This document shows, one piece after another, positions 5,400 through 22,722 of a stretch of DNA of 28,600 nucleotides (its first letter is position 1; each line of letters begins with the position of its first letter). The position numbers and the translations under genes were made by a program. Source of the DNA: a virus (Duplodnaviria > Heunggongvirae > Uroviricota > Caudoviricetes). Location: the IMG/VR virus record IMGVR_UViG_2737471849_000006. One strand, 5' to 3'. Below the pieces are notes generated by a model. The model had not been told where the DNA came from, did no database searches, and was given only the letters and a program-made list of their open reading frames with translations.

Positions 5400-5411
5400 C
5401 GGTCAGGCTCC

Positions 5412-6992: not shown

Positions 6993-8579
6993 ATGATACC
7001 AATCAAAGATCTAACTCTTGGCTATGCTGATGCTGAAAATTATAAGAGAAGGGAGAATAAAGAATTACTTAACAAAGTGTTCATACGTGATAATCACCTA
7101 TCTAGATTATGTGAACCAAATATATCGTTTCTTGTAGGAGAGAAAGGTACTGGTAAAACCGCATACTCTATCTATCTCTCAAATAACAATATTAACAATA
7201 CGCTAGCTACAACTAAATATATAAGAGAGACAGAATATCAAAAATTTATCACTCTTAAATCTGAAAAGCATTTAAATTTGTCTGACTTCTCTGGCATATG
7301 GAAAGTTATTCTATATTTATTAATATCAAAACAAGTATTAGATAAAGAAGGGAAAATTTCAAAGTTACTAAATTATTCAAAATTCTCATCACTTAATGAT
7401 GCAATAGATGAGTATTATCTTAAGGCATTTTCACCAGAAATAATTCAAGCCCTCAGTTTTGTTCAAGAGTCAAAAGTTGCAGCCGAACTACTTCATAAGC
7501 ATGCAACCTTAAAAGGTGAAGAAAGAGAGTCTTTATCTTTTTCTGAGAGCAGATTTCAGATAAATTTATTTTATATACAAAAAAAATTTGAAGAGGCCTT
7601 TAGCCAAATACGTTTATCTCAAAATCATATTTTATTTATCGATGGTATTGATATCCGCCCTTCCTCAATTCCATACGATGATTATCTAGAATGTATAAAA
7701 GGATTAGCTCACGCAGTCTGGGAGATTAACAACGATTTCTTCCCAAGTATAAAGGGAGGAAAAGGGAGAATGAAGGCCGTTCTCTTGATCAGGCCAGATA
7801 TATTTGAATCCATAGGATTACAAAATCAAAACGCAAAAATCAGAGATAATTCAGTATTCTTGGACTGGCGGACAGAATATGTTAACCACCGTAGCTCTCA
7901 ATTATTTGAGGTATTAGATCATCTGCTTAGGACTCAGCAAGACATGGCCCTTAAAAAGGGACAGGCATGGGACCATTATTTCCCTTGGGATTCACCCAAC
8001 GTCCATGATAATTATAATCACCCCACATCATTTATTAATTTCCTTCGCTGGTCATATTATCGCCCAAGAGATATATTACGGATGCTCGAAATTATCAAAT
8101 CACACGCCAGCGGTGATGATGGGAAAAATCAATTTAGTCTAGATGACTTTGAAAGTCCTAGCATGCAAAGAGATTACTCTAACTATTTACTTGGAGAAAT
8201 AAAAGATCATTTATCATTTTATTATGGAAGTGAACATTATGAGATTTTTTTAAAGTTCTTTGAATTCCTCTCTGGAAAAGATACTTTTGATTACGCTGAA
8301 TACCTCTTAGCATATAAACAACTTGAAACTCATATTAGTTCCATTTCCACAACAAAACCAAAATTCATGACAACTGCAAATGACTTCCTTCAGTTTCTTT
8401 TTGGTCTCAATGTAATATGCTATATAGAAACAACCGAAGATAATAATAGGTTTATACGTTGGTGTTTTAGAGAAAGAAGTTACGCAAATATCTCACCAAA
8501 AATAAAAACAGGAATGAAATATCAAATATTTTATGGCTTGGCAAAAGCCTTAAACGTCGGAAAGGCTTTAAAAAAATAA
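6993..8579 (+). CDS. P-loop NTPase of unassigned family; cargo gene in the Z/fun slot between FI and G, candidate anti-phage or exclusion protein
   Basis: 528-aa ORF with GAGG ribosome-binding site 5 nt before the ATG. Walker A GEKGTGKT near residue 50 and a Walker B-like ILFIDGID near residue 210. Strongly AT-rich codon usage compared with flanking tail genes, and transcribed opposite to them. Confidence 0.7.
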   Translation: MIPIKDLTLGYADAENYKRRENKELLNKVFIRDNHLSRLCEPNISFLVGEKGTGKTAYSIYLSNNNINNTLATTKYIRETEYQKFITLKSEKHLNLSDFSGIWKVILYLLISKQVLDKEGKISKLLNYSKFSSLNDAIDEYYLKAFSPEIIQALSFVQESKVAAELLHKHATLKGEERESLSFSESRFQINLFYIQKKFEEAFSQIRLSQNHILFIDGIDIRPSSIPYDDYLECIKGLAHAVWEINNDFFPSIKGGKGRMKAVLLIRPDIFESIGLQNQNAKIRDNSVFLDWRTEYVNHRSSQLFEVLDHLLRTQQDMALKKGQAWDHYFPWDSPNVHDNYNHPTSFINFLRWSYYRPRDILRMLEIIKSHASGDDGKNQFSLDDFESPSMQRDYSNYLLGEIKDHLSFYYGSEHYEIFLKFFEFLSGKDTFDYAEYLLAYKQLETHISSISTTKPKFMTTANDFLQFLFGLNVICYIETTEDNNRFIRWCFRERSYANISPKIKTGMKYQIFYGLAKALNVGKALKK

Positions 8580-8979
8580 AAAACAAAAATGGCGAGTGGA
8601 AAACACTTGCCATTCACCTCATAGTAATAACTAATAGTAGATAATTTTAACGGGACGCAGACCGAATTGTGTAATCTGAACATTTACCAAATATTTAAAA
8701 TATTATCTGAACTGAGTGATGCCAATCATAGCGCCAATACCTCTTCGCAAGTGACACTTGATGCAGAAAGCTATTTTTAAAACACGCGATAATAATCATC
8801 TCCTATGCCCTATCATCTTATGATTCTGTACAGGAAGACGCACGTTAGCTATGCAATCAAAACACACTGATATGACCATTGTTCTTGTTTATAAGGTCCG
8901 CTTTTGGCACAGAGTGGACTTCAGATTAGGCTTTACTCTGTGCCATAGATATGTAAGTTCACAACAGAGGTCATACAAC

Positions 8980-9507
8980 TTATTGCGGCATTTCCGGCCA
9001 TTCAGGATTTGCAGGATCCACACGGCTGACCAGAACGCTGTAACGTTCCCATGACTCCAGTCGTGCACGTTCCTCATCCGTCGCCATATTCAGCCTGACA
9101 GCGCGTTCCAGTGGCTGAATAACGTTTTCCGCTTCGGAAAGTAACGCGGCCTTTTGTGATTCTGCCTGTTGTTGCTGTTCATCTGCCGTATAAATCCGTT
9201 TAACCACAGCACCATCCTTAAACATCCATTTACCTGAGTCGTCAGCACGTCGGTTGGAGGTAATATCAGGAACCTCAACAACGCTAAAACCTTCAGGATT
9301 AAGCGTTGAAGCATCTCTGGTGATAGCGACAATAATATTATTTTCATCGTAAACAATCTTTATTGTGTCTGGCTGAAAGTTCTTCACTTCCTCATACCAG
9401 TTTTTTCCGTCTTCGGACCATAACCAGATAACATCAAAATTCTTTGTTAGCTGATATTGCTCTTTTGTTTTTGGATTACCTGACTTAATGTTCTTTAAAT
9501 GCTGCAT
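8980..9507 (-). CDS. G: tail fibre assembly chaperone gpG
   Basis: 175 aa, P2 gpG length, immediately downstream of tail fibre gene H. Confidence 0.88.
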
Positions 9508-9510
9508 AAC

Positions 9511-11520
9511 TTACACCTGCGCAACGTTATACCATGTGCCATTGATGTATTTTTGTATCGGCCTGAAGATGGCTTCATCATCGCCATCTACTTCACCAAT
9601 GATTCTTAATCCGGTAATCGTGTGTCCGGCTTTTTCATAACGACCACCTCGCGCCATCAATTGAACAACTCGCGTACCCAGGCGAACATCTTTCACATAG
9701 CGGGAATCAAAATTTCCCCAGTTGCTGGGTTGCATCTGACCGTTAACAGCAAATATTACCGAGTTATCTGTATTTCGCTGGCTATAGAAATGCCATCCGG
9801 CCTCATCGCCTAACTCTGCAACCACTGGACGGGTGGAAGCACCCCATAAATTAAAGGTAATATTCTTCGTGGATGTATTAGAGCTGGATAGCGAGAACTT
9901 TTTACTATCACCTGCCTGAATATTTTTAAAAGCAATAGCCACTCCATTCTGAAAACGGAATACACGCTGACTGTTAGCATAAACATCAAGAATACCGTCT
10001 CCATTCTGTTTAAATCCGGTATCATTATCACCAAGAACAATAGAGCTACCACCTAGTGCATTCGTCGTACCAACTCCAAAACAGCCATTAATGACGGCAT
10101 TAACAAGAATATTTAGTGCATCCCATTTCAACGTCATCAGGTCTTTTGTTGTGGTACTCTGGCGGCTTCTCCATTTGAAATATTCATTGCCGTTATCCCC
10201 CGTTTCAAACCACATGTATGAATCAGTGTCACCATCGGCATCATTTTTAAATCCAATCTTCGCCCAGTCAGTATTTCGAATCCAGGCAAGGATTGAGTCG
10301 TTTTCAAAAGTAAGTCCACCGGACAAGGTATCGCCATTTTTTTGCACGGCGTTCCCGGCTCGGTTTACCGTTTCCTGTAAACCGAGATATTCGATAACGG
10401 CGGCAACGGTCGATTTAGCCAGAATATCCCGCCCGACTTTTGTCAGGGTCGCCAGGCTGGCAACATCATTCCCCGTAAAATACGGAAACCTGTCTGCCGC
10501 AGTAGCAAGCCCCGCCAGCGCCGTCAGGGTAGCATCTTTCGGTTGCTTACCCGCAAGTGCATTAGTCATGGTGGTAGCAAAATTCGGGTCATTGCCCAGC
10601 GCCGCCGCCAGCTCGTTCAGCGTATTCAGTGCGTCAGGCGACGAGTCTACAAGGGCGGCAATCGCGGCCATAACGAAAGCCGTGTTTGCGATCTGAGTAT
10701 TATTCGTTCCCTGTCGCGCAGTTGGCGTCGTTGGCGTTCCGGTCAGTGCAGGGCTGTTTAATGGCGCTTTTTTGTTCGTTTCATCCATTACCGTCTTAAC
10801 GGCTTTTGGTGTTGCGGCGAGCGTTTCAGACGTGCTGTTGGTGGCGCTACTAAGCTGGACAAGGCCTTTTCGCGCTGTGGTGGCGTCCTGTGCGGTATAT
10901 TTCCCGTTAGCCAGGTCATACGCGGCCTTTACCGCTTTCGGCGTTGCGGCCAGTGTTTCAGACGTGCTGTTGGTCGCACTGCTTAACTGAGTAAAACCTT
11001 TTGCTGTCAGCGAGGCGTCCGGGTGACGTCGTGACTGTTCGTGCTCTGCAATTTTGTCATCAACGTAATCCTGCGTCGCCATCACCGTTGTGGTGTCAAT
11101 GGTCAGCTCCACTGAGGCCACACTGCTGACGATGATGACCATGCGACAGGTCTGCGAACGTCCTGAGCCTTCGGCAAGGGCTGGCTTATAGCTTTCGGCC
11201 ATGTTCGCCACGGCAATTAACGTTCCCGCATCATCGTACAGGCCAAGCTCACGCATCCAGAAACCGCCCACCTCCGGCGGAATAACCAGCTCTGCGATAA
11301 TATAATTACTGTTTCGTTTGTCCTGGCTGATTTTGTTCAGCGCATGTCGCCAGACTTCATGGATAAGCCCGGTCTGTCCGGCATCCGGGACAGGCAATTT
11401 ACCACCGCCATCCCCGACGGCCATCGTGGTAATGTTGACCTTCCGCCCTCCCGGTGCGGTTGCCGCTGCCAGCTTTGCTGCACCGGCAGTGGTGATAACG
11501 GTTTTGAATTTTGTGCTCAT
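9511..11520 (-). CDS. H: tail fibre protein gpH
   Basis: 669 aa, P2 gpH length. Contains a duplicated LSSATNSTSETLAATPKAVK motif and a C-terminal receptor-binding region. Confidence 0.9.
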   Translation of the reverse strand: MSTKFKTVITTAGAAKLAAATAPGGRKVNITTMAVGDGGGKLPVPDAGQTGLIHEVWRHALNKISQDKRNSNYIIAELVIPPEVGGFWMRELGLYDDAGTLIAVANMAESYKPALAEGSGRSQTCRMVIIVSSVASVELTIDTTTVMATQDYVDDKIAEHEQSRRHPDASLTAKGFTQLSSATNSTSETLAATPKAVKAAYDLANGKYTAQDATTARKGLVQLSSATNSTSETLAATPKAVKTVMDETNKKAPLNSPALTGTPTTPTARQGTNNTQIANTAFVMAAIAALVDSSPDALNTLNELAAALGNDPNFATTMTNALAGKQPKDATLTALAGLATAADRFPYFTGNDVASLATLTKVGRDILAKSTVAAVIEYLGLQETVNRAGNAVQKNGDTLSGGLTFENDSILAWIRNTDWAKIGFKNDADGDTDSYMWFETGDNGNEYFKWRSRQSTTTKDLMTLKWDALNILVNAVINGCFGVGTTNALGGSSIVLGDNDTGFKQNGDGILDVYANSQRVFRFQNGVAIAFKNIQAGDSKKFSLSSSNTSTKNITFNLWGASTRPVVAELGDEAGWHFYSQRNTDNSVIFAVNGQMQPSNWGNFDSRYVKDVRLGTRVVQLMARGGRYEKAGHTITGLRIIGEVDGDDEAIFRPIQKYINGTWYNVAQV
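10795..10990. repeat. imperfect direct repeat of ~60 bp inside tail fibre gene H
   Basis: The segment TTTCAGACGTGCTGTTGGT with flanks occurs twice (around 10820-10860 and 10950-10990) and encodes the duplicated LSSATNSTSETLAATPKAVK motif. Confidence 0.7.
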
Positions 11521-11530
11521 TATTCCTCAC

Positions 11531-12061
11531 TTATCCGGGGTAAACCGTAATTACATCGCCGTCGTAAGCCACACCACCGGCGAACAGGTAGCCGGGAATG
11601 TCCCGGGTAATGTTCAGGCCAATAAGGTGACGGCTTGCAGGTTTGGCATCAGCAATCAGCCGTTCCATTTCCTGATACATTGCCTCTGTGATACCGCTTT
11701 CCAGTACACCAATATCAAGCCGGAAGGTGCCGGGCGGGTCACTGTTTTCCCACCACTCCGTCACGTTGATGAGATAGCCGAGCGGCTCCACCACACGCCG
11801 GATTGCACCTATCGTGCCCTTATGACAGTGGATGAAATAGGCATCGCGGATAACGGCGCGTTTTGTCGCTTCCGGCCACTTTTCATCCCACCTGTCGACC
11901 GAAAACGCCCACGCCAGCCACGGCAGCAGATTTGCCGGACAGGTGTCCGGGTTCCACAGTTCACGAATACTGACCGGCGTTTTTTCAATTTCCGCACAGG
12001 CTTTTGCGGCGGCGACCTCAAGCGGTGATGAGCCGGTCGGCAGCAGTCGCGAATCACTCAT
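11531..12061 (-). CDS. I: baseplate assembly protein gpI
   Basis: 176 aa, P2 gpI length and order. Confidence 0.88.
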   Translation of the reverse strand: MSDSRLLPTGSSPLEVAAAKACAEIEKTPVSIRELWNPDTCPANLLPWLAWAFSVDRWDEKWPEATKRAVIRDAYFIHCHKGTIGAIRRVVEPLGYLINVTEWWENSDPPGTFRLDIGVLESGITEAMYQEMERLIADAKPASRHLIGLNITRDIPGYLFAGGVAYDGDVITVYPG

Positions 12062-12962
12062 CCGAGCCTCCGGTCACGACGCGGTATTCGGTACAGAAAG
12101 ACGCCTGCGTACTGTTGAGCACGATGTCGGCCAGTGGTGCAGCCAGTTCGACACGCTGCACACCTTCCACATGCAAAGCGGCATAAATGGCAGACAGACG
12201 GATGTCGCGCCCCAGCCGGTGCTGTGCCGTGATATACGCTTCCAGCTTTTTCACAGCGGCAGCGCGGATGGGTTCGCTTTCGGGACCAGGGTAAAGGTAA
12301 AGCGTGGCGTTTATCTGGTATTCAACGATGGCGGCAGACTGCACGGTCACGCGGTCGGCCACCGGCCTGACGTCCTCGCCATTAAGGGCGTTACGCACCA
12401 CAGCCAGCAGGTCTTCGGATGCGACGCCGTTATTTTCACGTGACAGCACAGAGATGGTGACACAGGCAGGAGACGGACTGGTGACAGAAATATCCGCGAC
12501 ACGCCCGTCAGCACTGCGACCATGATACTGATAGGCTCCCACTGACCCGGCGACGCTTAAGCCCTCAAAAGCCTGCTGAATACGCAGACGATAATCGGTG
12601 TCAGATTCCATCACTGCCGGTGTCGGCGGCATGGTCGAATCATCTGCCGGGGTGATAGTCAGGCGCGTGGTGTTGTAATTGGCACCAATCACATCAAGGT
12701 CATTACCGGCGGCACAGGCCAGCATCACCGCCCGTGCGGCCTCATTCACACGCTGACGCCAGATAAGCTCACGATAAGCATTTTCTTCCAGCAGTTTGAC
12801 GAGAGGCTCAGATTCCAGTGTCAGGGTACGGGCGACCGCCTCCTGCTGATCTTCCGGGTAAAGGGAAATCAGTGTCGCCTTGCGTTCAGCGAGAATGCTT
12901 TCAAAGTCCAGCTCCTCGACCACATCCGGTGCGGGTAGCTGGTTCAGGTCGATAATCGGCAT
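12054..12962 (-). CDS. J: baseplate wedge protein gpJ
   Basis: 302 aa, P2 gpJ length; overlaps the I start by 8 nt. Confidence 0.88.
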   Translation of the reverse strand: MPIIDLNQLPAPDVVEELDFESILAERKATLISLYPEDQQEAVARTLTLESEPLVKLLEENAYRELIWRQRVNEAARAVMLACAAGNDLDVIGANYNTTRLTITPADDSTMPPTPAVMESDTDYRLRIQQAFEGLSVAGSVGAYQYHGRSADGRVADISVTSPSPACVTISVLSRENNGVASEDLLAVVRNALNGEDVRPVADRVTVQSAAIVEYQINATLYLYPGPESEPIRAAAVKKLEAYITAQHRLGRDIRLSAIYAALHVEGVQRVELAAPLADIVLNSTQASFCTEYRVVTGGSDE

Positions 12963-12966
12963 GGTT

Positions 12967-13314
12967 TCAACTCACAGGGATGGTTAATGAAAGTGGCTGG
13001 CCGGTGTCGTTGTGCTGGCCGGTTAACGTGACCGTCATTCGCCCGTCAAAACTGCGCGCCGTGGTGACGGATGACAGGGTGACGCGGGGTTCCCATTTCA
13101 GCACTGCCATGTAACAGGCGACTTTAATCTGCAACTCAAGCGCCGGGGTCTGCGGCTGGTCAATCATTGACGCCAGCAACGAGCCGTAATCACGACGCAT
13201 CACCCGTGAGCCGACCGGTGTGCGCAGGATATCGCCGATACTCTGGCTGATATGCTCAAGGTCAGTGACAGTCAGGCCATCACTGCGATTCATTCCGAGA
13301 TAACGCGCTGTCAT
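12967..13314 (-). CDS. W: baseplate protein gpW (T4 gp25-like)
   Basis: 115 aa, P2 gpW length and order. Confidence 0.88.
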   Translation of the reverse strand: MTARYLGMNRSDGLTVTDLEHISQSIGDILRTPVGSRVMRRDYGSLLASMIDQPQTPALELQIKVACYMAVLKWEPRVTLSSVTTARSFDGRMTVTLTGQHNDTGQPLSLTIPVS

Positions 13315-13946
13315 AAAGGACTCCCGGTTGTGCCGCCGCTGTCGCCGGGGTGTTTATGGGTATGCAGTACCTTACCGTTTGATGAGAGTTCACCGCCGGT
13401 GTGTTCAATGTTGCCGCGCATCGTCCCGCCTTTCTGCACTTCCAGCGTGCCGGTAATCAGCCTGTTGGTGCAGACCACCTCCGGGGTGTCCAGGGTGACG
13501 CGGGTTGATGCTTTCACCATGACCACCGGCACCGTGGCAGTAACAGAATCAGAAGCCGTCACGCTGGCCGTTTTAATTCCGCTTACCGTGAGTGCACTGG
13601 TTTCGGGTTCATATTCAATCACCGCCCCGTCAGGGAAACGGATATGCAGGGCATCCGCCGACACAGACGGCGAGGGGTTATCGCCGGAATAAATCCCCGG
13701 CAGAACGAACGCCGTGTCGAGTTCACCACCCACGGCCAGAATCAGCACCTGTTCCCCCACGGAAGGTGCCCACCATGTGCGCGAACGTCCTGCGCGATGG
13801 GTCAGCCACTGAAGCCAGTCGGTGCACATGCCGCCGGTCTGCACGCGGCAGCGACCGGCGTTAAGGTCGGTTTCGACGATAATGCCAGTGCGAATCATGT
13901 TGCGCAGTGCGCGCGCGAGTTCCTGAATATTTGCGAGAGTGTTCAT
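13311..13946 (-). CDS. V: baseplate spike/assembly protein gpV
   Basis: 211 aa from the internal start MNTLANIQELARALRNM (cat at 13944-13946), matching P2 gpV as I recall it. The track ORF runs 6 codons further upstream. Confidence 0.85.
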   Translation of the reverse strand: MNTLANIQELARALRNMIRTGIIVETDLNAGRCRVQTGGMCTDWLQWLTHRAGRSRTWWAPSVGEQVLILAVGGELDTAFVLPGIYSGDNPSPSVSADALHIRFPDGAVIEYEPETSALTVSGIKTASVTASDSVTATVPVVMVKASTRVTLDTPEVVCTNRLITGTLEVQKGGTMRGNIEHTGGELSSNGKVLHTHKHPGDSGGTTGSPL

Positions 13947-14029
13947 GCATGTGAGATTGCACAATATATAAAAGTTATGCTATCTGGATTCATTTGTAGA
14001 ACTACCAGACAACATTCAAGGAGAGCGTA

Positions 14030-14815
14030 ATGGTCAGCTATAATGTGACTAATGTGTGGGGGCTAATCGTTTTTTTCCTTTGTAGCTTTGCAGTATTAGC
14101 ATTTTTTAGCTTTGGTAAAAGTAACCTTATGAGGCTTATTGCACATTATTTCAATTTTGGATATTCAGACAAAAAATTAAAAAGACTTGACCGCGAGTGG
14201 CGCGACATTCAACTATTTAAAATAATTAACGGAATCAATGTATCAGGCATTGAAAATGTGAGAATGATACAGCAGGGACTGATTGATGGAAAACTAAAAA
14301 CATCGTATTTTTTCCTTACTCGTATCTGGGGTGACATAACAAAACCACCACACATAATTAAAACAATAATTGTAATTCTGGCCAGTATTTTTTACATTCT
14401 CCTCGCATGTTACATACACAACGAACAATCCGTTATAGTAAGGGATGCCACAGGCATACCATATAAAAACATGATGTACTATGTTTATAGTGACAAAGTT
14501 CTTTTATCCTTCAAAAATAAAGCAGTTGAATTTAATAAAACTTATAGCCTTGCCGATTGCAAGAGACTGCAAAACGTATTTATAAAAGACACACTTCCTG
14601 AGATCGCCTGCAATAAGCTCTTACAGCTAAACGAGGAGGACTCCGAATGGTTAAGCCAGGAGATTAAAGATAATAACAGACACAAAAAAGCATTATTAAT
14701 ACTATCCCTCGTCTATTTCACTTCAGGTCTGGTTATATTCCTGTCATATACAAAATTCTTTTACGCCAATAAGAAGGTTTTAGAATACAAAGCATCAAAT
14801 AAAAATCACTCATAA
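14030..14815 (+). CDS. integral membrane protein with three predicted transmembrane helices; cargo gene in the orf30 slot between V and S, possible exclusion/abortive-infection factor
   Basis: 261-aa ORF with AAGGAG ribosome-binding site 7 nt before the ATG. Hydrophobic segments LIVFFLCSFAVLAFFSF, IIKTIIVILASIFYILLACYI and ALLILSLVYFTSGLVIFLSY. AT-rich, on the strand opposite the tail genes, followed by a hairpin at 14822-14856. Confidence 0.65.
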   Translation: MVSYNVTNVWGLIVFFLCSFAVLAFFSFGKSNLMRLIAHYFNFGYSDKKLKRLDREWRDIQLFKIINGINVSGIENVRMIQQGLIDGKLKTSYFFLTRIWGDITKPPHIIKTIIVILASIFYILLACYIHNEQSVIVRDATGIPYKNMMYYVYSDKVLLSFKNKAVEFNKTYSLADCKRLQNVFIKDTLPEIACNKLLQLNEEDSEWLSQEIKDNNRHKKALLILSLVYFTSGLVIFLSYTKFFYANKKVLEYKASNKNHS

Positions 14816-14821
14816 ACCTCT

Positions 14822-14856
14822 AAACATTGAGCGACCAGCATGGCCGCTCAATGTTT
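14822..14856 (+). terminator. stem-loop between convergent genes (membrane-protein gene and S)
   Basis: Arms AAACATTGAGCG (14822-14833) and CGCTCAATGTTT (14845-14856) form a perfect 12-bp inverted repeat, followed by AATT. The U-tract is weak. Confidence 0.5.
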
Positions 14857-14886
14857 AATTGCGCATCAGCCTCTGCCTGGATAAAA

Positions 14887-15339
14887 CTAACGCTCAAGGT
14901 GAGCCAGGATAATCTCTTCAATCATCTGCACATCCTCACCGGTAAAGCCGAGCAGGGGACGCGCCGGATAATCAATTTTCTTACCGTCTTTCCGGTTTTC
15001 TTCCGACAGACCAAACTGATGCACACTGGCGATTTTCGGCGACTTCCCGCCGTAAAATTCCATTGATGCCTGCTCCGGGCTGGCACGGATATGCAAAAAA
15101 CGACTAGTAATAAGTTTCGCAAACATTTTTCGCTTAACGCGACCGGTCTTTTTTCTGACGCTCTGCTGTTGGCGTGGCGCGTAGGGTGTGCCGTCCGGGG
15201 CTTTCTGTGCCATCACCCGACGCTGCTGACTCTGCCGCAGACGTTTCGCCAGTTCGGCACTCAGTCGCCGACGCCCTGACGGTGACAGCGATTCAATCAG
15301 TCCGGTCAGCCGGTCTTCAAAACGCTTAAACTCATTCAT
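14887..15339 (-). CDS. S: tail completion protein gpS
   Basis: 150 aa, P2 gpS length and order. Confidence 0.88.
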   Translation of the reverse strand: MNEFKRFEDRLTGLIESLSPSGRRRLSAELAKRLRQSQQRRVMAQKAPDGTPYAPRQQQSVRKKTGRVKRKMFAKLITSRFLHIRASPEQASMEFYGGKSPKIASVHQFGLSEENRKDGKKIDYPARPLLGFTGEDVQMIEEIILAHLER

Positions 15340-15799
15340 CCCACTTGCTCACCAGTTCGCCATTGATATAAAGCTCCATCGGGCGGGTGACCGGCTCCGG
15401 CGGCGTGGGTTCCGGGATATTCTTCACATGCAGCGCGCCGTCCACCTCACTGACCAGCGTGCGCTCGGTCAGCATCAGGCTGATGCTGATATCAAAGCTG
15501 CTGTCATTGTTGATGTCTGCATAAAACGTGAAGCCCTTTTTCTGGCCTTCGTCAGTGGTCATGATGTCGGGCTGATTTTCCCGCAGCCACGCCAGCACCG
15601 GCACGATGAGCAGGTCAAAATCACCGGTAAAGTCGGTCACAATGACATTGAGCGTGTAACGCTTTTCAAATGACAGCGACGTCGCCAGTGTGGAGGCAAT
15701 ACTCCCGTTATCCACGAATATCCGCAGCATCTCGGGACTGGTTTTCAGCACCGTGACGGCATCAGTCAGCGCCCTGCGCAGGCTGTCGGGTTTGAGCAT
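15332..15799 (-). CDS. R: tail completion protein gpR
   Basis: 155 aa, P2 gpR length and order. Confidence 0.88.
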   Translation of the reverse strand: MLKPDSLRRALTDAVTVLKTSPEMLRIFVDNGSIASTLATSLSFEKRYTLNVIVTDFTGDFDLLIVPVLAWLRENQPDIMTTDEGQKKGFTFYADINNDSSFDISISLMLTERTLVSEVDGALHVKNIPEPTPPEPVTRPMELYINGELVSKWDE

Positions 15800-16052
15800 C
15801 GTTTTCGTCCTGACAGTGTTTAATCATTTTTACCTGGCTGGCACAGCGTGCCAGCGCGTTCTCAAGCTGCCGGATATCGGCACTTAAATCACCGTTCGTC
15901 TCCGGGTCACTGCCCGGCATCGGGCAAAGGCTCACTTTCGGGCAGGCGTTGTGGACAATCACTGGCGTCAGTGCAGGCCGGGCGCTGGTGCAACCGGCGC
16001 ACAGCATCAGGTAGGTCAGCGCCGTACCAGCGGCGAAAATCTTCGTTTTCAT
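15762..16052 (-). CDS. lysC: Rz1-like outer-membrane lipoprotein spanin LysC
   Basis: 96 aa with signal peptide and lipobox (LMLCAGC). Lies in an alternate frame overlapping the 3' part of lysB and the 5' end of R, the classic embedded Rz1 arrangement. Confidence 0.75.
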   Translation of the reverse strand: MKTKIFAAGTALTYLMLCAGCTSARPALTPVIVHNACPKVSLCPMPGSDPETNGDLSADIRQLENALARCASQVKMIKHCQDENDAQTRQPAQGAD

Positions 16053-16332
16053 TCAGTAACCTCGTGATGGTTTTCTCGCGCTGTGCTTCACGTTTCGCGG
16101 CGTTCTCCAGTTCCTGACGCAGTGCCACCTGCGCCAGCTCGTTTTTATCTGCCCTGGTGAGCGCAACATGAAGCTGATTTTTCAGCATGGTGATGGTCGT
16201 CTGCTGACCGCTGGCGACGTTGTTCGCCCTGTCCAGCGAGGCGCGCAGGCTGGCATTTTTGTGTTTCACCAGAAACAGACCGGCCACCGCCAGCGATAAC
16301 AACACGACCAGCACAATCATCAGCCTTGACAT
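15907..16332 (-). CDS. lysB: Rz-like inner-membrane spanin LysB
   Basis: 141 aa with an N-terminal transmembrane anchor, a coiled-coil periplasmic domain and a Pro-rich C-terminus. Confidence 0.85.
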   Translation of the reverse strand: MSRLMIVLVVLLSLAVAGLFLVKHKNASLRASLDRANNVASGQQTTITMLKNQLHVALTRADKNELAQVALRQELENAAKREAQREKTITRLLNENEDFRRWYGADLPDAVRRLHQRPACTDASDCPQRLPESEPLPDAGQ

Positions 16333-16745
16333 GGTTCCCGCCCCTCAAAACGCTGACGGCAGGCCGTACGTATCAGTCGGAAGAACACCGATGCCACGAG
16401 ATAAATCAGCGCGGTAAAAATCCACCCGGCAGCGACCAGCGAGATAAACGTCGCCACCATCACCACCAGAGCCGCTGCCCGTCTGCGCCACGGCACCGGC
16501 TGCAAAAACAGCGACGTGACAATCTTCACGGCCAGCGATTCCGGCGGCAGCTCCCGCCCGTAGCGTTCCAGCACATACTCAGTGGCATACACGCCGACAC
16601 CAACGGCAACCACACAGATAACCGTCGCCAGAATCGCCCAGGCAGCGACAAAATTGACGGCCACGCTCTGCGGGTAAATCAGGGACAGTGCCAGCATCAG
16701 CGCCAGCGACACATTCAGCATCAGTGAAAGGGATAATTTCTTCAT
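16320..16745 (-). CDS. lysA: lysis-timing membrane protein LysA
   Basis: 141 aa with several hydrophobic helices, P2 LysA length and position. Confidence 0.82.
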   Translation of the reverse strand: MKKLSLSLMLNVSLALMLALSLIYPQSVAVNFVAAWAILATVICVVAVGVGVYATEYVLERYGRELPPESLAVKIVTSLFLQPVPWRRRAAALVVMVATFISLVAAGWIFTALIYLVASVFFRLIRTACRQRFEGREPCQG

Positions 16746-16759
16746 GGTGTTTACTCCGT

Positions 16760-17257
16760 TTAAGCCGGTACGCCGCCAGCGGTACGCCAGACGGTGACCA
16801 GTTTTTCCAGTGAATGCTCACGCTGACCGTAACCGGCACCCGGCAGGGACGCCCAGATATTGCGACAGCGTGAAATGGCGCGCTCAATGCGTCCCGCCCG
16901 GATGTCATCCAGTGCACCGCGTTCGCGGATCAACTGAATGGCGAGCCTGTCCTGTGACAACGGACTGAAATCCGGCAGGGCAAGCTGTTTGCGGTAATGC
17001 GGCCAGAACAGGTAAAGCTGCTGATAGCGACCGGAGGCCGTGGATTTTTCACCGCGACGGTTAAACACCTTCGCCGGTCGGCCATGCGCGAACGGGTGGT
17101 CACTGTAGTCGGTGAAAATTTCCGGCTTCCCGTCCAGTCCGGTGACTATCACGTCATAGCCCCGGTTTTTCGTCAGTGGATGATTCGCCGTCCCTTCGGA
17201 CACGGCCAGCATGTCGAGAAAGGCGGCGATATTCTGATGCGTGTTAATTACCGGCAT
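16760..17257 (-). CDS. K: endolysin gpK
   Basis: 165 aa, P2 gpK length; lysozyme-like catalytic region containing VSEGT. Confidence 0.88.
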   Translation of the reverse strand: MPVINTHQNIAAFLDMLAVSEGTANHPLTKNRGYDVIVTGLDGKPEIFTDYSDHPFAHGRPAKVFNRRGEKSTASGRYQQLYLFWPHYRKQLALPDFSPLSQDRLAIQLIRERGALDDIRAGRIERAISRCRNIWASLPGAGYGQREHSLEKLVTVWRTAGGVPA

Positions 17258-17538
17258 TACTGTTTCCCCCTGCCCTTAAAGCGGCGCTGAATGGCAATCT
17301 CAATCACCTGATAACCGGCGATACCCAGCATGGAGCCGATGCCGCACACCGCTGGCAGTGACAGGTCAGGAAACTGCACCAGAACAACACCGGCAACCAT
17401 CGAGACAAAACCACCGAGCAACATGCGCCCGATAAACAGACGCGGGGTGATAGGTTCACCACCGGCAAGCACCTTGCCGACAACAATCAGCACCCCAATC
17501 ATGAAAAGCGACAGGACGCTTTTTTCTTCTGCTGTCAT
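17257..17538 (-). CDS. Y: holin gpY
   Basis: 93 aa with hydrophobic helices and a charged C-terminus (RRFKGRGKQ); P2 gpY length. Confidence 0.88.
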   Translation of the reverse strand: MTAEEKSVLSLFMIGVLIVVGKVLAGGEPITPRLFIGRMLLGGFVSMVAGVVLVQFPDLSLPAVCGIGSMLGIAGYQVIEIAIQRRFKGRGKQ

Positions 17539-17541
17539 GCG

Positions 17542-17607
17542 TTACTCCCACAGATTGACAGTTTCAGCCACGGGCGCGGTCTGAACGTCGGGCAGTTCGA
17601 CGGCGGT
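17542..17607 (-). pseudogene. X: 3' remnant of tail gene X (last ~21 codons only)
   Basis: The C-terminal TAVELPDVQTAPVAETVNLWE matches the end of P2 gpX as I recall it. Everything upstream in that frame (from about 17608) is the reverse complement of terminase P coding sequence, not X. Confidence 0.7.
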
Positions 17608-18453
17608 GAACGCGTGGAAATCGACGTCAGTCATAACGCCCTTGCCGGTGGGCTTCTCTGTGCGGACGGCCAGTGGCGGCAGATTGTCACCATTGAAGAC
17701 GCCCTGAAAGGCGGCTGCACATTGTTCGACATTGAGCAGCTCAAACGCGAAAACAGCGCCGACGATTTTAAAAACCTGTTCATGTGTGAATTTGTTGACG
17801 ACAAGGCATCGGTGTTCCCGTTCGAGGAGCTGCAACGCTGCATGGTCGACACGCTGGAAGAATGGGAAGACTATGCGCCGTTTGCCGCCAATCCGTTCGG
17901 CTCCCGCCCGGTATGGATTGGTTACGACCCGTCACACCGTGGCGACAGCGCCGGATGCGTGGTACTGGCACCGCCGGTGGTGGCCGGTGGCAAATTCAGA
18001 ATACTTGAGCGTCACCAGTGGAAAGGCATGGACTTTGCCACCCAGGCGGAATCCATCCGCAAACTCACCGAAAAATACAACGTCGAATACATCGGTATTG
18101 ATGCCACCGGCCTCGGTGTCGGCGTGTTCCAGCTCGTGCGCTCGTTCTATCCCGCCGCGCGTGATATCCGCTACACGCCGGAAATGAAAACCGCAATGGT
18201 GCTCAAGGCAAAAGACGTTATCCGCCGTGGCTGTCTGGAATACGACGTCAGCGCCACCGACATCACCAGCTCGTTTATGGCTATCCGCAAGACCATGACC
18301 AGCAGCGGACGCAGCGCCACCTATGAGGCCAGCCGCAGCGAGGAAGCCAGCCACGCCGACCTCGCCTGGGCGACCATGCACGCCCTGTTAAATGAGCCAC
18401 TCACCGCCGGTATCAGCACCCCGCTGACATCCACCATTCTGGAGTTTTACTGA
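17608..18453 (+). pseudogene. P: 5'-truncated terminase large subunit gpP (C-terminal ~280 codons, nuclease domain)
   Basis: The stop overlaps the Q start (TGATG at ~18451-18455) as in P2. P2 gpP is 590 aa; the reading frame here is abutted directly by the X remnant with no O, N, M or L between. The exact deletion breakpoint near 17605-17610 is approximate. Confidence 0.75.
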
Positions 18454-19487
18454 TGAGCAAGAAAAAAGGGAAAACACCGCAACCTGCGGCAAAAACAATG
18501 ACCGCCAGCGGCCCGAAAATGGAGGCATTCACCTTTGGTGAGCCGGTGCCGGTACTCGACCGCCGTGACATTCTGGATTACGTCGAGTGCATCAGTAACG
18601 GCAGATGGTATGAGCCACCGGTCAGCTTTACCGGTCTGGCAAAAAGCCTGCGGGCTGCCGTGCATCACAGCTCGCCGATTTACGTCAAACGCAATATTCT
18701 GGCCTCGACATTTATCCCGCATCCATGGCTTTCCCAGCAGGATTTCAGCCGCTTTGTGCTGGATTTTCTGGTGTTCGGTAATGCGTTTCTGGAAAAGCGT
18801 TACAGCACCACCGGTAAGGTCATCAGACTGGAAACCTCACCGGCAAAATATACCCGCCGTGGCGTGGAAGAGGATGTTTACTGGTGGGTGCCGTCCTTCA
18901 ACGAGCCGACAGCCTTCGCGCCCGGCTCCGTGTTTCACCTGCTGGAGCCGGATATTAATCAGGAGCTGTACGGCCTGCCGGAATATCTCAGCGCCCTTAA
19001 CTCTGCCTGGCTGAATGAGTCGGCCACGTTGTTCCGCCGCAAGTATTACGAAAATGGCGCACATGCCGGATACATCATGTACGTCACCGATGCCGTGCAG
19101 GATCGCAACGATATCGAAATGCTTCGCGAAAACATGGTCAAGTCGAAAGGCCGCAACAACTTTAAAAACCTGTTTCTCTATGCCCCACAGGGGAAAGCCG
19201 ACGGCATTAAAATTATCCCCCTCAGTGAAGTGGCGACGAAGGACGATTTTTTTAATATCAAAAAAGCCAGCGCCGCTGACCTGCTGGACGCGCACCGCAT
19301 CCCCTTTCAGTTGATGGGTGGCAAGCCGGAGAACGTCGGGTCGCTGGGTGATATTGAGAAAGTGGCAAAGGTCTTTGTCCGCAATGAGCTTATCCCGTTA
19401 CAGGACAGGATCCGCGAGATAAACGGCTGGCTCGGTCAGGAGGTCATCCGCTTTAAAAACTACTCACTGGACACTGACAACGGCTGA
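18453..19487 (+). CDS. Q: portal (capsid) protein gpQ
   Basis: 344 aa starting MSKKKGKTPQPAAKTMTASGPKMEAFTFGEP, the P2 gpQ length and N-terminus. Confidence 0.9.
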   Translation: MSKKKGKTPQPAAKTMTASGPKMEAFTFGEPVPVLDRRDILDYVECISNGRWYEPPVSFTGLAKSLRAAVHHSSPIYVKRNILASTFIPHPWLSQQDFSRFVLDFLVFGNAFLEKRYSTTGKVIRLETSPAKYTRRGVEEDVYWWVPSFNEPTAFAPGSVFHLLEPDINQELYGLPEYLSALNSAWLNESATLFRRKYYENGAHAGYIMYVTDAVQDRNDIEMLRENMVKSKGRNNFKNLFLYAPQGKADGIKIIPLSEVATKDDFFNIKKASAADLLDAHRIPFQLMGGKPENVGSLGDIEKVAKVFVRNELIPLQDRIREINGWLGQEVIRFKNYSLDTDNG

Positions 19488-19491
19488 ACAT

Positions 19492-19516
19492 CGCCGCCTG
19501 CGGGCGGCTTTTTTAC
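19492..19516 (+). terminator. rho-independent terminator downstream of Q
   Basis: GC-rich hairpin CGCCGCCTGCGGGCGGC followed by a TTTTTT run, 5 nt after the Q stop. Confidence 0.75.
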
Positions 19517-19656
19517 AACCCGCCATCACGCCCTCACACGCTCACCACCGCACAAAACAGCCCGCATACACACCAACGCCCCGGCGAACAATCTAAACGC
19601 CATCACGACGCGCTCAGACGCTGAAAAAATAAAATCAGCACCACCGCCAGCGCGCA

Positions 19657-19675
19657 GTGCTTTCCCCGCCTCGCC
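19657..19675. other. cos: cos site (19-nt cohesive-end sequence)
   Basis: GTGCTTTCCCCGCCTCGCC is the exact reverse complement of the P2 cohesive end GGCGAGGCGGGGAAAGCAC as I recall it. Confidence 0.85.
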
Positions 19676-19781
19676 CGCCCGCTTCATGGGTCGGTTTTAA
19701 TGCAGTTGCATAAACATAGTACAAGCGCGCCAGTCAAGCCTAGCGCACATACATAGAGAACGTATTTAAACATGCAAAATG

Positions 19782-19800
19782 ATGCACCCTATAGGTGCAT
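19782..19800 (-). terminator. candidate intrinsic terminator after the two-gene cargo operon
   Basis: Perfect 7-bp stem ATGCACC / GGTGCAT with a 5-nt loop, 13 nt downstream of the 333-aa gene stop, followed on the minus strand by ATTTTG. Confidence 0.5.
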
Positions 19801-19812
19801 TCATATTAAACA

Positions 19813-20814
19813 TCACCGAGCCATCTTGACTGCATAATGAACACAAAAATAATGTTCTCCCGCATATCTAAAATGATGTTCAATTTTTCTCAAACCTATA
19901 TATGGAGTCTCCACTTCTTTAATCCCAACTATCTCATGAGATTCTACACCAATATCTACCGGAGTAATCTCTTTTAGATAATCAATGTATCTCTCACACC
20001 AAGCATCAAATTTTGCACCAGTATAATAAGCAATTAAAAACAAGCGTTTAACATTAATAGGATTATAGTTACTAATTAGCTTTGAATAATGCTTTAATAT
20101 GTTAGCTTGATCTAGAGATTTTAAAATCAATGCTTCTATTATAGCAAATAGATTTCCTTTATCTTCAATAACAAGATCTAATTCACCCGCACTTTTACCA
20201 GATTGAGACTCTCCCTCTCTAGTTTGATCTTTTACCTCATAATTCTTAGCTAATAACATATCCCGTATAAAATCATTAAAATCATCTTCACCATATCCTT
20301 TAGCAGAGCGACGCCCCAATCTTTGAAGCACCCAAGATAAATCACTATCAAACTTTATAAAATTCAAAGGACGCTGCACTCGACCATCCTTTGATATTAA
20401 GCTTATACTATTAAGATTTAACAAATTAATCCTTTGCCTGATTAATTCATCAATATATCCAGAGTAACTATTATTATCTAACACTACGATATGCTTATCA
20501 AAAGTAGTGGCTGCATTAGCAACTGCACAAACAACTATATCCTTAATATCCTCAGAACTATTCGGCACTGGTGTACGCAATATCTTGCCTGAAGGAGCTT
20601 TAGATAACTCAGACTCCCACTTCTTAAAAAACAAAAAAGAATCCTTGTTGTTTCCGCAAGACTTTAAATAACCTAAGCGAATTTTTCCATCAGCATCAAG
20701 AATCAACTCATTTTCACCATTAACAATGGTTTCAATAAAAAAACCGCTAAAAACTTTAACATCAGAAATATTAGCAGCAACAAATTCAGGACACAAACAA
20801 ACAGCACAAAGCAT
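19813..20814 (-). CDS. partner/effector of the OLD-family ATPase; function unassigned, possible nuclease
   Basis: 333-aa ORF whose ATG follows the ATPase stop codon by 1 nt (TGAtATG). AT-rich. Contains ELDLVIEDKG and LILDADGK acidic motifs but no domain I can assign with confidence. Confidence 0.65.
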   Translation of the reverse strand: MLCAVCLCPEFVAANISDVKVFSGFFIETIVNGENELILDADGKIRLGYLKSCGNNKDSFLFFKKWESELSKAPSGKILRTPVPNSSEDIKDIVVCAVANAATTFDKHIVVLDNNSYSGYIDELIRQRINLLNLNSISLISKDGRVQRPLNFIKFDSDLSWVLQRLGRRSAKGYGEDDFNDFIRDMLLAKNYEVKDQTREGESQSGKSAGELDLVIEDKGNLFAIIEALILKSLDQANILKHYSKLISNYNPINVKRLFLIAYYTGAKFDAWCERYIDYLKEITPVDIGVESHEIVGIKEVETPYIGLRKIEHHFRYAGEHYFCVHYAVKMAR

Positions 20815-20815
20815 A

Positions 20816-22483
20816 TCAATGAACTCCCTTTGAGTTCATTATTTTTTGTATCTTTAATTCCTGTATTCTAATTGTATCCTGAATCTCAACATCCATAAAC
20901 TCATTTGGCCATGTGATATCTCCATCAGAATTCACAGCCACTCTATTTAGTAAGGTTGATGTTCCCTCTTCATCTCGCTCAAGATGATAGATTGCCACAT
21001 GGTCCTCAGTAAGTTCGCTTGATTCATCAACAATTCTTAATCTAATCCGTCTAACTAATGCATCACTATGTGTTTCAATAATAAAAATTTTCTTTTCTTG
21101 CATAGATATTTTAATTAATGCGTCAGTTAACCATGCCTGCATTTTAGGATGCAAATGTATTTCTGGTTGTTCTATTATTGTAATCGAGCCCTTTGGTGAC
21201 AAATAAGCTTGAACCAAGACAGGCAACACTTGTGATATTCCAAACCCTACATCTGTCAATTCTAAATTAACAGCATCTTGGTTTATAACTATCTTATGAA
21301 TTATGTCATTAACTCTAACTATATCAACCGCTAAGTTAAATTCAGCGAGAAGAAGGTTTATGTTTTCTGTTATTTTTGTATTTTTCTTCAGAATCTCCGC
21401 CAACTCAGAGCCATCAGCAGAATTTAACTGAGCATGATTGACTGTTTTATCTAATAAATAATAACGCTGAGGAAATGCCCTCAACGGGCTGACATGATTA
21501 ACATTTTCGCCATCAAACATTTTTGAAAGCATTAATACTCCCAGAGAAACAACATGTGACAAAAAGTTAACAACAGGGTTGTAGGAATTTCCAAAAAAAA
21601 CATAAAAACCACGTCCTTCATTGACAGGGAATAGCCCCAAAGAATAAGGATTCATGATTTCTAAGATATCAGACTTACATCCTCTAAATACTTCTTGAGG
21701 GATAACATCCGACAATACAACGACATTATTCTTTTTGGGTAACAGTTCAACTATTCTTTCATCATTCTTATTTAGAAGAACAAATCTCGAAACCTTTACC
21801 ACACCTTTATTTTTATCATATCTGAAGTCATAACTTATTTTAGATGCAGACAATTTATTTCCTGAAATAGAAACAACTTTAGTTAGGCAATCTTTGATTC
21901 TCTTCAATGGGCATTCATATATAAATCTGCGTAAGTTTTCTGAGGTAGCCCGGCTAAACATAATATTATTGCCAGCATCTCTAAAAAGCATAATCAACTG
22001 GCACAATTTATCAGCAATAATATTTAATTTAGCCTCCTCAAACTCATCAAAATTAACAATAGCATTCAAAGATTCATTTATCAAATTATTGGCCTTCGCG
22101 ACCAACTCATCATTATTTTTTACTGTCTGTATAGTGAATCGCATAATCATAGCAAATGATTCTAAAGTTTCTCTTCTCAGAGTATCAATGCCATTTTTAA
22201 CTACGCTATTATCAGAAAAATCAAAGCTAAAGTTAAGTGTTTTGGAGTCATCTTTATTTTTTATAATATTTAATGCTTCCCCCATTCCCACTTTAGGTCC
22301 ATTCAGCCGTAGAGCAGAGTCAGACAATGACATTGAATCAACTGTCTGAGAAAACATCAACAAAGAGTTAATTAGTGCACTTTTTCCACAACTATTTGCA
22401 CCTAACAATATTGTCAATGGCTTTAAATCTAACTTAAAGCTTTCGTATGCTTTATAATTTTGTCCTGTAAAAGTTCTCAGCAT
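20816..22483 (-). CDS. OLD-family (AAA_15/AAA_21-type) ABC ATPase without a fused nuclease domain
   Basis: 555 aa. N-terminal Walker A LGANSCGKSALINSL; C-terminal IIEQPEIHLHP (Walker B/D-loop signature of OLD/GajA/AriA/PtuA-type ATPases) and FIIETHSDALV (H-loop); a long insert lies between. AGGAG ribosome-binding site 5 nt before the ATG. AT-rich. Confidence 0.75.
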   Translation of the reverse strand: MLRTFTGQNYKAYESFKLDLKPLTILLGANSCGKSALINSLLMFSQTVDSMSLSDSALRLNGPKVGMGEALNIIKNKDDSKTLNFSFDFSDNSVVKNGIDTLRRETLESFAMIMRFTIQTVKNNDELVAKANNLINESLNAIVNFDEFEEAKLNIIADKLCQLIMLFRDAGNNIMFSRATSENLRRFIYECPLKRIKDCLTKVVSISGNKLSASKISYDFRYDKNKGVVKVSRFVLLNKNDERIVELLPKKNNVVVLSDVIPQEVFRGCKSDILEIMNPYSLGLFPVNEGRGFYVFFGNSYNPVVNFLSHVVSLGVLMLSKMFDGENVNHVSPLRAFPQRYYLLDKTVNHAQLNSADGSELAEILKKNTKITENINLLLAEFNLAVDIVRVNDIIHKIVINQDAVNLELTDVGFGISQVLPVLVQAYLSPKGSITIIEQPEIHLHPKMQAWLTDALIKISMQEKKIFIIETHSDALVRRIRLRIVDESSELTEDHVAIYHLERDEEGTSTLLNRVAVNSDGDITWPNEFMDVEIQDTIRIQELKIQKIMNSKGVH

Positions 22484-22722
22484 ATAATCTCCTTTTTAAT
22501 AATAGTATAAATGTTATGTCTCATAAGTTTTACCATATATACTCCACGTTATGGCAAATCTCATCAAAAATGAAAGCATCTCTTTTTATACATTTAAGCA
22601 GCAACCTGTTTCTCTGACCACCCATAGCCGTAGTATGACGCATAGAAAAGAAAACATGAACAGATGTTACAAAAAATGTAGTATGCTATACAAAACAATG
22701 CATTACAGCCTGAAGCGCTATC

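Follow-up and report, generated by a model that had tools for sequence, protein, structure and literature searches.

The window analysed here, a stretch of 28,600 nucleotides from a tailed virus of the Caudoviricetes (IMG/VR record IMGVR_UViG_2737471849_000006), carries an AT-rich open reading frame between the baseplate spike gene V and the tail completion gene S, on the strand opposite to both of these tail genes. A preliminary description had placed a 261-aa gene there, opposite to the late genes and between V and the O-to-S operon, and the ORF call and the P2 annotation agree on this. The low GC content that it had pointed out was also found, with 0.33–0.35 (~34%) in the gene vs 0.55–0.60 (~57%) in the flanks, and a GC3 of 0.36 vs 0.66 in V. 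The same description had hesitated between P2 orf30 and a different cargo gene. The comparison with P2 orf30 that it proposed settles this in favor of the former: the window gene is the already known orf30 of bacteriophage P2, with 99.6% amino acid identity to P2 Orf30 (AAD03281.1; positions 9439–10224 of AF063097) and the same neighbors. The two differ at one of 261 residues and one of 786 nucleotides (S217R, at nucleotide 14680). Across a 2.1-kb segment that takes in V and S, the window is 99.7% identical to P2 (AF063097) at the nucleotide level, and the two sequences share the pV activator site and the terminator. The features of the locus are listed in Table 1.

Table 1. Coordinates of orf30, its surrounding signals and the predicted segments of its product (positions in the window)
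Feature	Position	Strand	Basis
Gene V, baseplate spike, left edge of the V–S slot	13311–13946	-	ORF call, P2 annotation
V–orf30 intergenic region, 83 bp, holding the leftward late promoter pV	13947–14029		P2 annotation mapped
pV Ogr/delta activator-binding site (P2 10239–10266)	13988–14015	-	P2 annotation mapped
Shine-Dalgarno sequence AAGGAG, 6 nt 5' of the orf30 ATG	14018–14023	+	Read from sequence
orf30 CDS, ATG to TAA, 261 aa	14030–14815	+	ORF call, P2 match, PHROG 2407
TM1, aa 9–29	14054–14116	+	Kyte-Doolittle, AlphaFold2
Loop 1, aa 30–107, basic helical domain, predicted cytoplasmic	14117–14350	+	Hydropathy, AlphaFold2, alignment, family charge
TM2, aa 108–130	14351–14419	+	Kyte-Doolittle, AlphaFold2
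Loop 2, aa 131–220, predicted periplasmic, four-stranded beta meander and helices	14420–14689	+	Alignment, AlphaFold2, family charge
Cys pair in loop 2, Cys177 and Cys194	14558–14560 and 14609–14611	+	Alignment
TM3, aa 221–240	14690–14749	+	Kyte-Doolittle, AlphaFold2
Basic C-terminal tail, aa 241–261	14750–14812	+	Sequence, family charge
Palindromic hairpin, the annotated rho-independent O-operon terminator of P2	14821–14857		P2 annotation, folding
Gene S, tail completion, right edge of the V–S slot	14887–15339	-	ORF call, P2 annotation

The element in the window differs from wild-type P2 in other regions. The segment corresponding to P2 2066–6646 (4.6 kb) is deleted, which removes O, N, M and L entirely and P and X in part. 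In addition, the old/tin region is swapped for other cargo genes and the immunity/integrase end is only 66–70% identical to P2. In the P2 record (AF063097), orf30 is labelled nonessential and is flanked by the rho-independent O-operon terminator on one side and by the pV activator-binding site on the other. Its position is one of three sites of horizontally acquired genes in P2-like phages, the others being the TO region (old/tin) and the Z region (fun), and the protein is listed there as "unknown" (PMC3091744). Phage R18C has another ORF at this position (PMC6823313). Surveys of P2 hotspots (including PMC13586616) focus on the old/tin and Z/fun loci and leave orf30 unmentioned, and our literature search found neither a study giving Orf30 a function nor an experiment on it.

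Any promoter of orf30 must also sit in the V–orf30 intergenic region and would overlap pV there. A sigma-70 scan of the plus strand upstream of the gene gave no consensus match. Hexamers spotted by eye upstream of orf30 in P2 and at the Serratia-type loci were weak, and no promoter is claimed from them. The pV activator site ends 14 nt short of the orf30 ATG, and a divergent late promoter at this site would therefore initiate inside the gene; this geometry argument is made by likeness to the shared pO/pP dyad site. Because of the opposite strand and the short distance from activator site to ATG, we infer that orf30 is not a late gene, and its own ribosome-binding site is consistent with late-independent expression. 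At the other end of the gene, the terminator hairpin starts 6 nt 3' of the orf30 stop codon, with a folding energy of -28.3 kcal/mol on the minus strand and -22.4 on the plus strand. Since the O-operon terminator on the minus strand thus also follows the end of orf30 on the plus strand, it is probably bidirectional.

The reading frame is well preserved. Of the 74 copies in IMG/VR, 70 are intact; in three others a contig end truncates the frame, and a single one is disrupted internally. V and/or S adjoin the gene in all 74. Among E. coli genome copies, 461/464 cover at least 80% of the gene, and the overall dN/dS of orf30 is 0.46. Since the copies are intact, the E. coli coverage high and dN/dS below 1, orf30 is a genuine gene and no chance ORF. 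It changes faster than its neighbors: relative to the window, protein identity averages 90.8% for Orf30 vs 97.3% for V and 97.6% for S, and dN/dS in nine alleles with flanks is 0.47 vs 0.14 and 0.06, respectively. These observations bear on a role at the DNA level, in which the AT-rich block would nucleate H-NS or insulate the late operons O and V from each other, the ORF being incidental. Such a role would fit the AT-richness kept in relatives diverged to 21–31% identity and the H-NS peak on the BL21 equivalent (bioRxiv 10.64898/2026.09.05.749240). We nevertheless give it very little credence, in view of the intact frames, the purifying selection on the soluble loops (dN/dS 0.1–0.6), the Cys pair and loop-1 motif found family-wide, and the strong ribosome-binding site. 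Moreover, most P2-like phages lack the AT-rich block.

Three hydrophobic helices and a lysine-rich cytoplasmic segment had been noticed in the protein beforehand, and both descriptions are supported. The transmembrane prediction proposed as a check (Kyte-Doolittle, 19-residue windows above 2.0) placed hydropathy peaks at the three helices of Table 1. A confident AlphaFold2 model built on a 25-sequence alignment (mean pLDDT 83.5, pTM 0.68) has a helix at 7–40 holding TM1, a small helical domain at 48–94 and a helix at 109–133 holding TM2. In loop 2, four beta strands (141–173) are followed by helices at 174–179 and 189–198, and TM3 lies inside a single long helix, 202–260. The three-helix architecture is conserved across the alignment, and Orf30 is predicted to reside in the inner membrane, held there by three anchors. 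The protein has 25 lysines among its 261 residues, and the loop between TM1 and TM2, probably cytoplasmic, has ~15 K/R vs 7 D/E. Averaged over the family, the net charge of loop 1 is +5.0, that of loop 2 +0.2 and that of the C-terminal tail +2.2.

The best conserved feature of the family is a loop-1 motif, D-x-Q-L-F-[KR]-x-x-N-G-I-N-V...D-A...G, in which Q61, G68, N70, D76 and G87 are invariant or nearly so among the 25 aligned sequences. The Cys pair of loop 2 is found in 25/25 aligned members and in all 46 Orf30 protein alleles of the IMG/VR copies. Cys194 forms an invariant column, with the first Cys moved by two positions in three sequences. The loop charge pattern and the conserved Cys pair support a topology in which the N-terminus would be outside, loop 1, with a helical domain of ~75 aa, inside, loop 2, a beta/alpha domain of ~90 aa, outside with a putative periplasmic disulfide, and the C-terminus inside. 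Structure searches of PDB and BFVD (Foldseek of the model against BFVD, E ≤ 0.001) found no relative, whether of the entire protein or of its periplasmic domain alone, and a profile search of PDB sequences gave nothing significant.

Selection acts unevenly along the protein. On 54 nucleotide alleles, dN/dS is 0.31 in the loop-1 core and 0.11–0.58 in loop 2, as compared with 1.56 in TM1, which is hypervariable, and 1.61 in TM3. Values above 1 are confined to TM1 and to TM3 and its surroundings, reaching marginally (~1.25) into the C-terminal tail, and 66–70% of the positions of TM1 and TM2 vary among alleles. Both soluble domains are thus under purifying selection, and TM1 and TM3 are without it. 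For the two helices, relaxed constraint on membrane anchors is the more cautious reading. A signature of an arms race was sought in the periplasmic loop, and no clear diversifying selection was seen there, the peak being 0.58 (aa 159–176); as a phage arms race might predict such a signature, this counts against an exclusion role. We read the pattern to mean that the loops carry the function of Orf30 and that the helices are exchangeable anchors.

Because the soluble domains are constrained and the helices variable, a binding or blocking role is mildly favored over a pore. This bears on abortive infection, where Orf30 would sense an infection and, like RexB and other single-gene Abi membrane proteins, kill the cell by depolarizing or permeabilizing its inner membrane. 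The small size of Orf30, its several membrane passes and the location of its gene in a cargo slot of the prophage would suit such an effector, and the H-NS silencing of a relative (see below) fits a potentially toxic product. However, the transmembrane helices are the least constrained part of the protein and lack any conserved residue that is polar or charged, a pattern one would not expect of a pore-lining segment or a gated channel. The slot of P2 moreover holds orf30 alone, with no partner or sensor gene, and no Abi model of PADLOC matched. We consider an effector of this kind quite improbable.

Orf30 belongs to PHROG 2407, which is annotated as of unknown function (E = 3.9e-147, residues 1–261 aligned to profile positions 1–261). 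Every relative tested falls in this group, including the distant ones (P0007 to P0043), which match at 1e-29 to 1e-97. When 5.8 billion proteins were searched with a word index, only five clusters were returned, and an exhaustive phmmer search of 1.84 billion representatives returned 35 proteins, the full-length ones being mostly 250–270 aa long and 20–34% identical. All relatives whose source was traced are from Enterobacterales (Escherichia, Yersinia, Serratia, Pectobacterium, Cronobacter, Sodalis and Enterobacter). In Pfam and NCBIfam no usable match was found for Orf30; the sole profile match, DUF4271 at E = 0.26, was treated as noise. Likewise, PADLOC-DB v2 gave 0 families at E ≤ 1 and the holin and spanin families of Pfam and PHROG gave no match.

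The relation to Pfam DUF6216 (PF19723, gathering threshold 27.3 bits) is more distant. Orf30 itself does not match this family at E ≤ 1, nor do its close alleles at E ≤ 10. The PHROG 2407 member P0027 from Sodalis passes the threshold with 28.9 bits (profile positions 10–265 of 270), and 10 of the 25 aligned PHROG 2407 members match weakly at E ≤ 1. As its own match is absent while these members do match, Orf30 is an outlying relative of DUF6216 and no scored member of it.

The occupancy of the slot between V and S was then compared across prophages. The orf30 type is present in 464/5426 complete E. coli genomes. A P2-type V–S region was found in 1587/5426, and 460 of these 1587 have orf30 there. 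About 70% of the E. coli P2-type V–S junctions are empty and have no replacement, so orf30 is dispensable; among the matches listed, most of the other junctions show an empty slot with 66 bp from V to S. This frequent absence, together with the lack of a PADLOC or structural match, weighs against an exclusion role. In E. coli S88 the slot holds a RelA/SpoT-domain protein matching the candidate defence model PDC-S33, and further strains have unrelated hypothetical genes there. Homology between the slot variants stops exactly at the V start codon, which implies that the pV region, orf30 and the terminator form one module in P2.

Seven P2-like phage contigs, one of them traced to Serratia, have an Orf30 relative of only 21–31% identity in the V–S slot, again on the opposite strand. 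In these contigs V is 63–75% and S 41–47% identical to P2. Every one of these copies is at 31–34% GC inside phages of 57–63% GC, and AT-richness is therefore a lasting property of the family and no sign of recent arrival. Some of the slots with distant relatives hold additional ORFs; for example, some of those at locus L024 resemble, judged by their sequences, an anti-repressor and a toxin-antitoxin pair of the HigB/HigA type. The defence-type cargo in the same slot of some relatives (S88, L024) is a point in favor of exclusion. Away from the slot, family members were found at the integrase-att end of a P2-like prophage of Serratia, beside a gpR fragment in a decayed prophage, and in Serratia chromosomes without any remaining prophage genes. 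A profile search of genome contigs with a narrower alignment gave a single family locus. Overall, the Orf30 family is fast-evolving, persistently AT-rich and the usual occupant of the V–S slot in P2/186-like prophages of Enterobacterales.

The gene is also intact in defective prophages, such as the one in the window, which lacks capsid genes, and the E. coli B remnant, where S is truncated; the slot-equivalent DUF6216 gene is intact in the BL21 prophage remnant. Retention of orf30 as prophages decay speaks for exclusion. It also bears on an accessory role in the lytic cycle or its establishment, in which Orf30 would adjust lysis timing with Y, K and LysA/B/C, assist genome entry, or guard against lysis from without by sister phages. 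For such a role one can cite the membrane location of the protein, the proximity of the gene to the lysis cassette (<1.5 kb) and to the adjoining spike gene V, and a faint, sub-threshold match of one BL21-type relative to Phage_holin_2_3 (E = 0.037). Nevertheless, orf30 lies outside the Y-K-lysABC cassette, on the strand opposite to both late operons, the sole nearby activator site cannot drive a full-length transcript, and Orf30 has no holin or spanin match. The gene is nonessential in the P2 annotation, ~70% of P2-type phages do without it or any replacement, it stays intact in prophages no longer able to make virions, and one family member sits at the int-att end of its prophage, far from lysis and tail genes. 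A lytic accessory function is therefore improbable.

A regulatory clue comes from the retron-Eco1 P2-like prophage of BL21, for which an H-NS ChIP peak on a slot-equivalent DUF6216 gene and derepression of this gene without H-NS/StpA have been reported (bioRxiv 10.64898/2026.09.05.749240). We located the prophage through the Eco1 ncRNA. The product of the gene, WP_000115390.1, is encoded between S and V, on the opposite strand, in a P2/186-like remnant, and scores 44.5 bits against Pfam DUF6216. It resembles Orf30 in its build, which comprises three transmembrane helices, a loop 1 that is basic and an acidic loop 2 containing two Cys, and the gene is as AT-rich (33–35% GC). In contrast, its loop 1 is shorter and without the Orf30 motif, and it lies outside PHROG 2407. 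Similarity between the two proteins is faint (BLASTP pairwise E = 0.016; hhalign E = 0.0023, probability 12.6%), and in the hhalign profile comparison the Cys pair and TM3 align. We therefore treat them as distant paralogues sharing slot, architecture and composition. All 18 IMG/VR relatives of the BL21 type are in the V–S slot, and this type occurs in 111/5426 complete E. coli genomes.

Within the E. coli B lineage, the orf30 type is found in B-LamR and the BL21 type in B-ZidR and BL21(DE3). The possibility that the gene of the preprint is the orf30 allele of the E. coli B remnant at yegQ was ruled out, as BL21(DE3) does not have that remnant. By analogy, the H-NS result on the BL21 gene may apply to orf30. 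The silencing reported for the slot equivalent (bioRxiv 10.64898/2026.09.05.749240) supports exclusion; on the other side, these data come from a distant paralogue, and no promoter was matched upstream of orf30. The same preprint describes YmfE/Kunado of the cryptic prophage e14, an H-NS-silenced membrane protein that blocks T5-like phages after adsorption and whose locus has a strong H-NS binding site. Kunado, like Orf30, is a prophage-encoded multi-pass membrane protein of similar size, but it comes from another prophage and another genomic position. Homology between the Orf30 family and Kunado/YmfE was rejected (hhalign E = 0.61, probability 0.09%). By analogy only, Kunado is the best functional precedent for the mechanism proposed below for Orf30.

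Within P2 itself, the closest parallels are old, tin and fun(Z), three lysogenic-conversion genes that are nonessential and confer exclusion of lambda, T-even phages and T5 (AF063097). As with orf30, they lie on the strand opposite to their neighbors, in gaps between operons, and in regions known to be horizontally acquired (PMC3091744). For example, fun(Z) lies in the gap where the V operon ends and the F operon starts, and orf30 likewise occupies the gap where the O operon ends and the V operon starts. They differ in having annotated anti-phage phenotypes, whereas Orf30 is a membrane protein without a known phenotype. Among the four AT-rich, nonessential, opposite-strand genes of the P2 record, orf30 is the sole one with no assigned role. 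Against exclusion it can be held that, after decades of work on P2 lysogens, the P2 record assigns exclusion phenotypes to old, tin and fun(Z) only.

Small phage-encoded inner-membrane proteins such as T4 Imm, P22 SieA and HK97 gp15 stop genome entry of the incoming phage after adsorption. To our knowledge, these proteins lack sizeable soluble domains, whereas Orf30 has two. An inner-membrane location, a trait of the superinfection-exclusion class, is predicted for Orf30 from its three helices, its positive-inside charge and the AlphaFold2 model. No sequence or structural similarity of Orf30 to any entry of PDB, BFVD, Pfam or PADLOC was found.

Because the position, strand and composition of orf30 match those of old, tin and fun(Z), we tentatively propose that Orf30 is an H-NS-silenced membrane protein of lysogenic conversion, which would most plausibly act as a post-adsorption phage-exclusion factor. 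In this proposal orf30 would be a lysogenic-conversion gene ("moron") like those three, transcribed from a weak promoter of its own, apart from the late operons, and held at low expression by H-NS. Its product would serve the lysogen rather than virion production. The two soluble domains, anchored across the inner membrane, would bind a component needed by the incoming phage, once adsorbed, at the envelope or inner membrane. This binding would block genome entry, that is, superinfection exclusion, without pore formation or cell killing. Of the preliminary description as a whole, the identity, the three helices and the basic segment have held, and for its suggestion of superinfection exclusion or abortive infection the evidence is circumstantial. 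The same word applies to what is new in the present analysis, namely that the family is conserved in the V–S slot, its link to DUF6216, the topology and disulfide predicted for Orf30, the selection pattern and the H-NS analogy.

A benefit to the host need not involve phages. Orf30 could instead be an envelope fitness factor, comparable to the morons Bor and Lom, that modifies or shields the envelope of the lysogen, for example by conferring tolerance to colicins, tailocins, bile or antimicrobial peptides, or by signalling across the membrane. Retention in decayed prophages and in prophage-free Serratia chromosomes suggests a host benefit of any kind, and a periplasmic domain combined with a conserved cytoplasmic one is a sensor-like build. 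Orf30 also matches no known defence family and is absent from the exclusion genes of the P2 record. However, the other three AT-rich nonessential genes of P2 are all anti-phage, the other occupants of the V–S slot look defence-related, P2 hotspots are dominated by defence cargo (PMC13586616), and no similarity to known envelope-stress, immunity or signalling families was found. We regard an envelope role with no phage exclusion as unlikely.

The exclusion proposal can be extended, with greater doubt, to the whole family. Orf30/PHROG 2407 and DUF6216 might form an unrecognised family of H-NS-silenced, single-gene, inner-membrane superinfection-exclusion proteins, the usual occupants of the V–S slot of P2/186-like prophages across Enterobacterales, acting through a periplasmic domain with a stabilising disulfide and a conserved cytoplasmic domain of unrecognised fold. 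In that case orf30 would be the fourth anti-phage gene of P2, overlooked because H-NS keeps it off in the laboratory.

P2 is a model temperate phage, and in its record orf30 alone among the four AT-rich, nonessential, opposite-strand genes is without an assigned role, the other three being anti-phage. The Orf30 family is common, with the orf30 type in 464 and the BL21 type in 111 of 5426 complete E. coli genomes. If Orf30 is an exclusion factor, it would represent a new family of membrane-level defence with an unrecognised fold, and if that factor is H-NS-silenced, it would affect the phage susceptibility of common laboratory and clinical strains.

The element in the window is P2 (AF063097) with a deletion. 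Window 1-17608 corresponds to P2 24254-6646 and window 17608-19675 to P2 2066-1, so that about 4.6 kb of P2 are absent at the junction; genes L, M, N and O were lost entirely, and X and P in part. Because these capsid-side genes are gone while the replication, lysis and tail genes are still present, the element is a defective prophage without a capsid, and possibly a tailocin-like one.

Other genes stand where P2 carries old and tin. The 555-aa ABC-type ATPase at this position matches the PADLOC models NsnB (2.3e-51), HEC-03B, PDC-M55A and AriA, and no match was found for its 333-aa partner. The two look like a two-gene defence-type system at the classical P2 hotspot. At the immunity/integrase end of the window, the identity to P2 C/int is patchy and only 66-70%. 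Heteroimmunity of the element to P2 is therefore probable, and its attachment site may be a different one.

Coordinates of the compared features in the window and at other loci
Feature	Sequence	Coordinates	Strand
Orf30 TM1	window	14054-14116	
Deletion junction	window	~17608 (region 17300-19700)	
Genes at the old/tin position	window	19704-22733	
333-aa partner	window	19813-20814	-
ABC-type ATPase, 555 aa	window	20816-22483	-
C/int end	window	26750-28600	
RelA/SpoT-domain gene	E. coli S88 (L009)	993-2072	
V-S slot with further ORFs	L024	6769-8409	
DUF6216/S overlap	BL21 (L033)	26316-26374	
ASCH/orf30-family pair	L007, L008, L021	~9180-10759	
ASCH/orf30-family pair	L003	8274-10768	

The first transmembrane helix of Orf30 (TM1) is hypervariable, with a dN of 0.22 and a dN/dS of 1.56 over 54 alleles, whereas its adjoining loops are conserved; 19 of 29 N-terminal positions vary. 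This could be relaxed constraint on an anchor or true diversifying selection inside the membrane.

In some P2-like prophages, the slot between V and S is filled with different cargo. That of E. coli S88 encodes a 359-aa RelA/SpoT-domain protein matching PDC-S33, and those of CD45 and ES5 (loci L010 and L011) hold unrelated hypothetical genes. At a further locus (L024), additional ORFs lie beside the orf30 relative; read by eye, they appear to code for a protein resembling an anti-repressor and for a pair resembling HigB/HigA.

Both paralogue types were found intact among E. coli B lineage genomes, in separate defective P2-like remnants. The orf30 type is in B-LamR, in the remnant at yegQ (yegQ-yegR; L029/L030), next to truncated S and portal genes; BL21(DE3) and B-ZidR have the DUF6216 type, in their retron-Eco1 remnant, and BL21(DE3) is without the yegQ remnant. 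In P2, a separate hairpin lies between orf30 and S, whereas in BL21-type prophages the convergent DUF6216 and S genes overlap at their 3′ ends by about 59 nt, an arrangement that may permit coupling through antisense or termination.

In Serratia, a gene of the orf30 family is paired with one for an ASCH-domain protein in the interval from ybjL to the ecotin gene, at loci where no prophage genes remain. Serratia D1N4 has the same pair beside a P2-like prophage that looks intact, immediately outside the prophage's integrase, and ybjL also adjoins the insertion of the 186-like remnant in BL21 (L033). Together, these sites suggest that the ybjL neighbourhood is a conserved attachment region and that the ASCH/orf30-family pair outlasts prophage decay.
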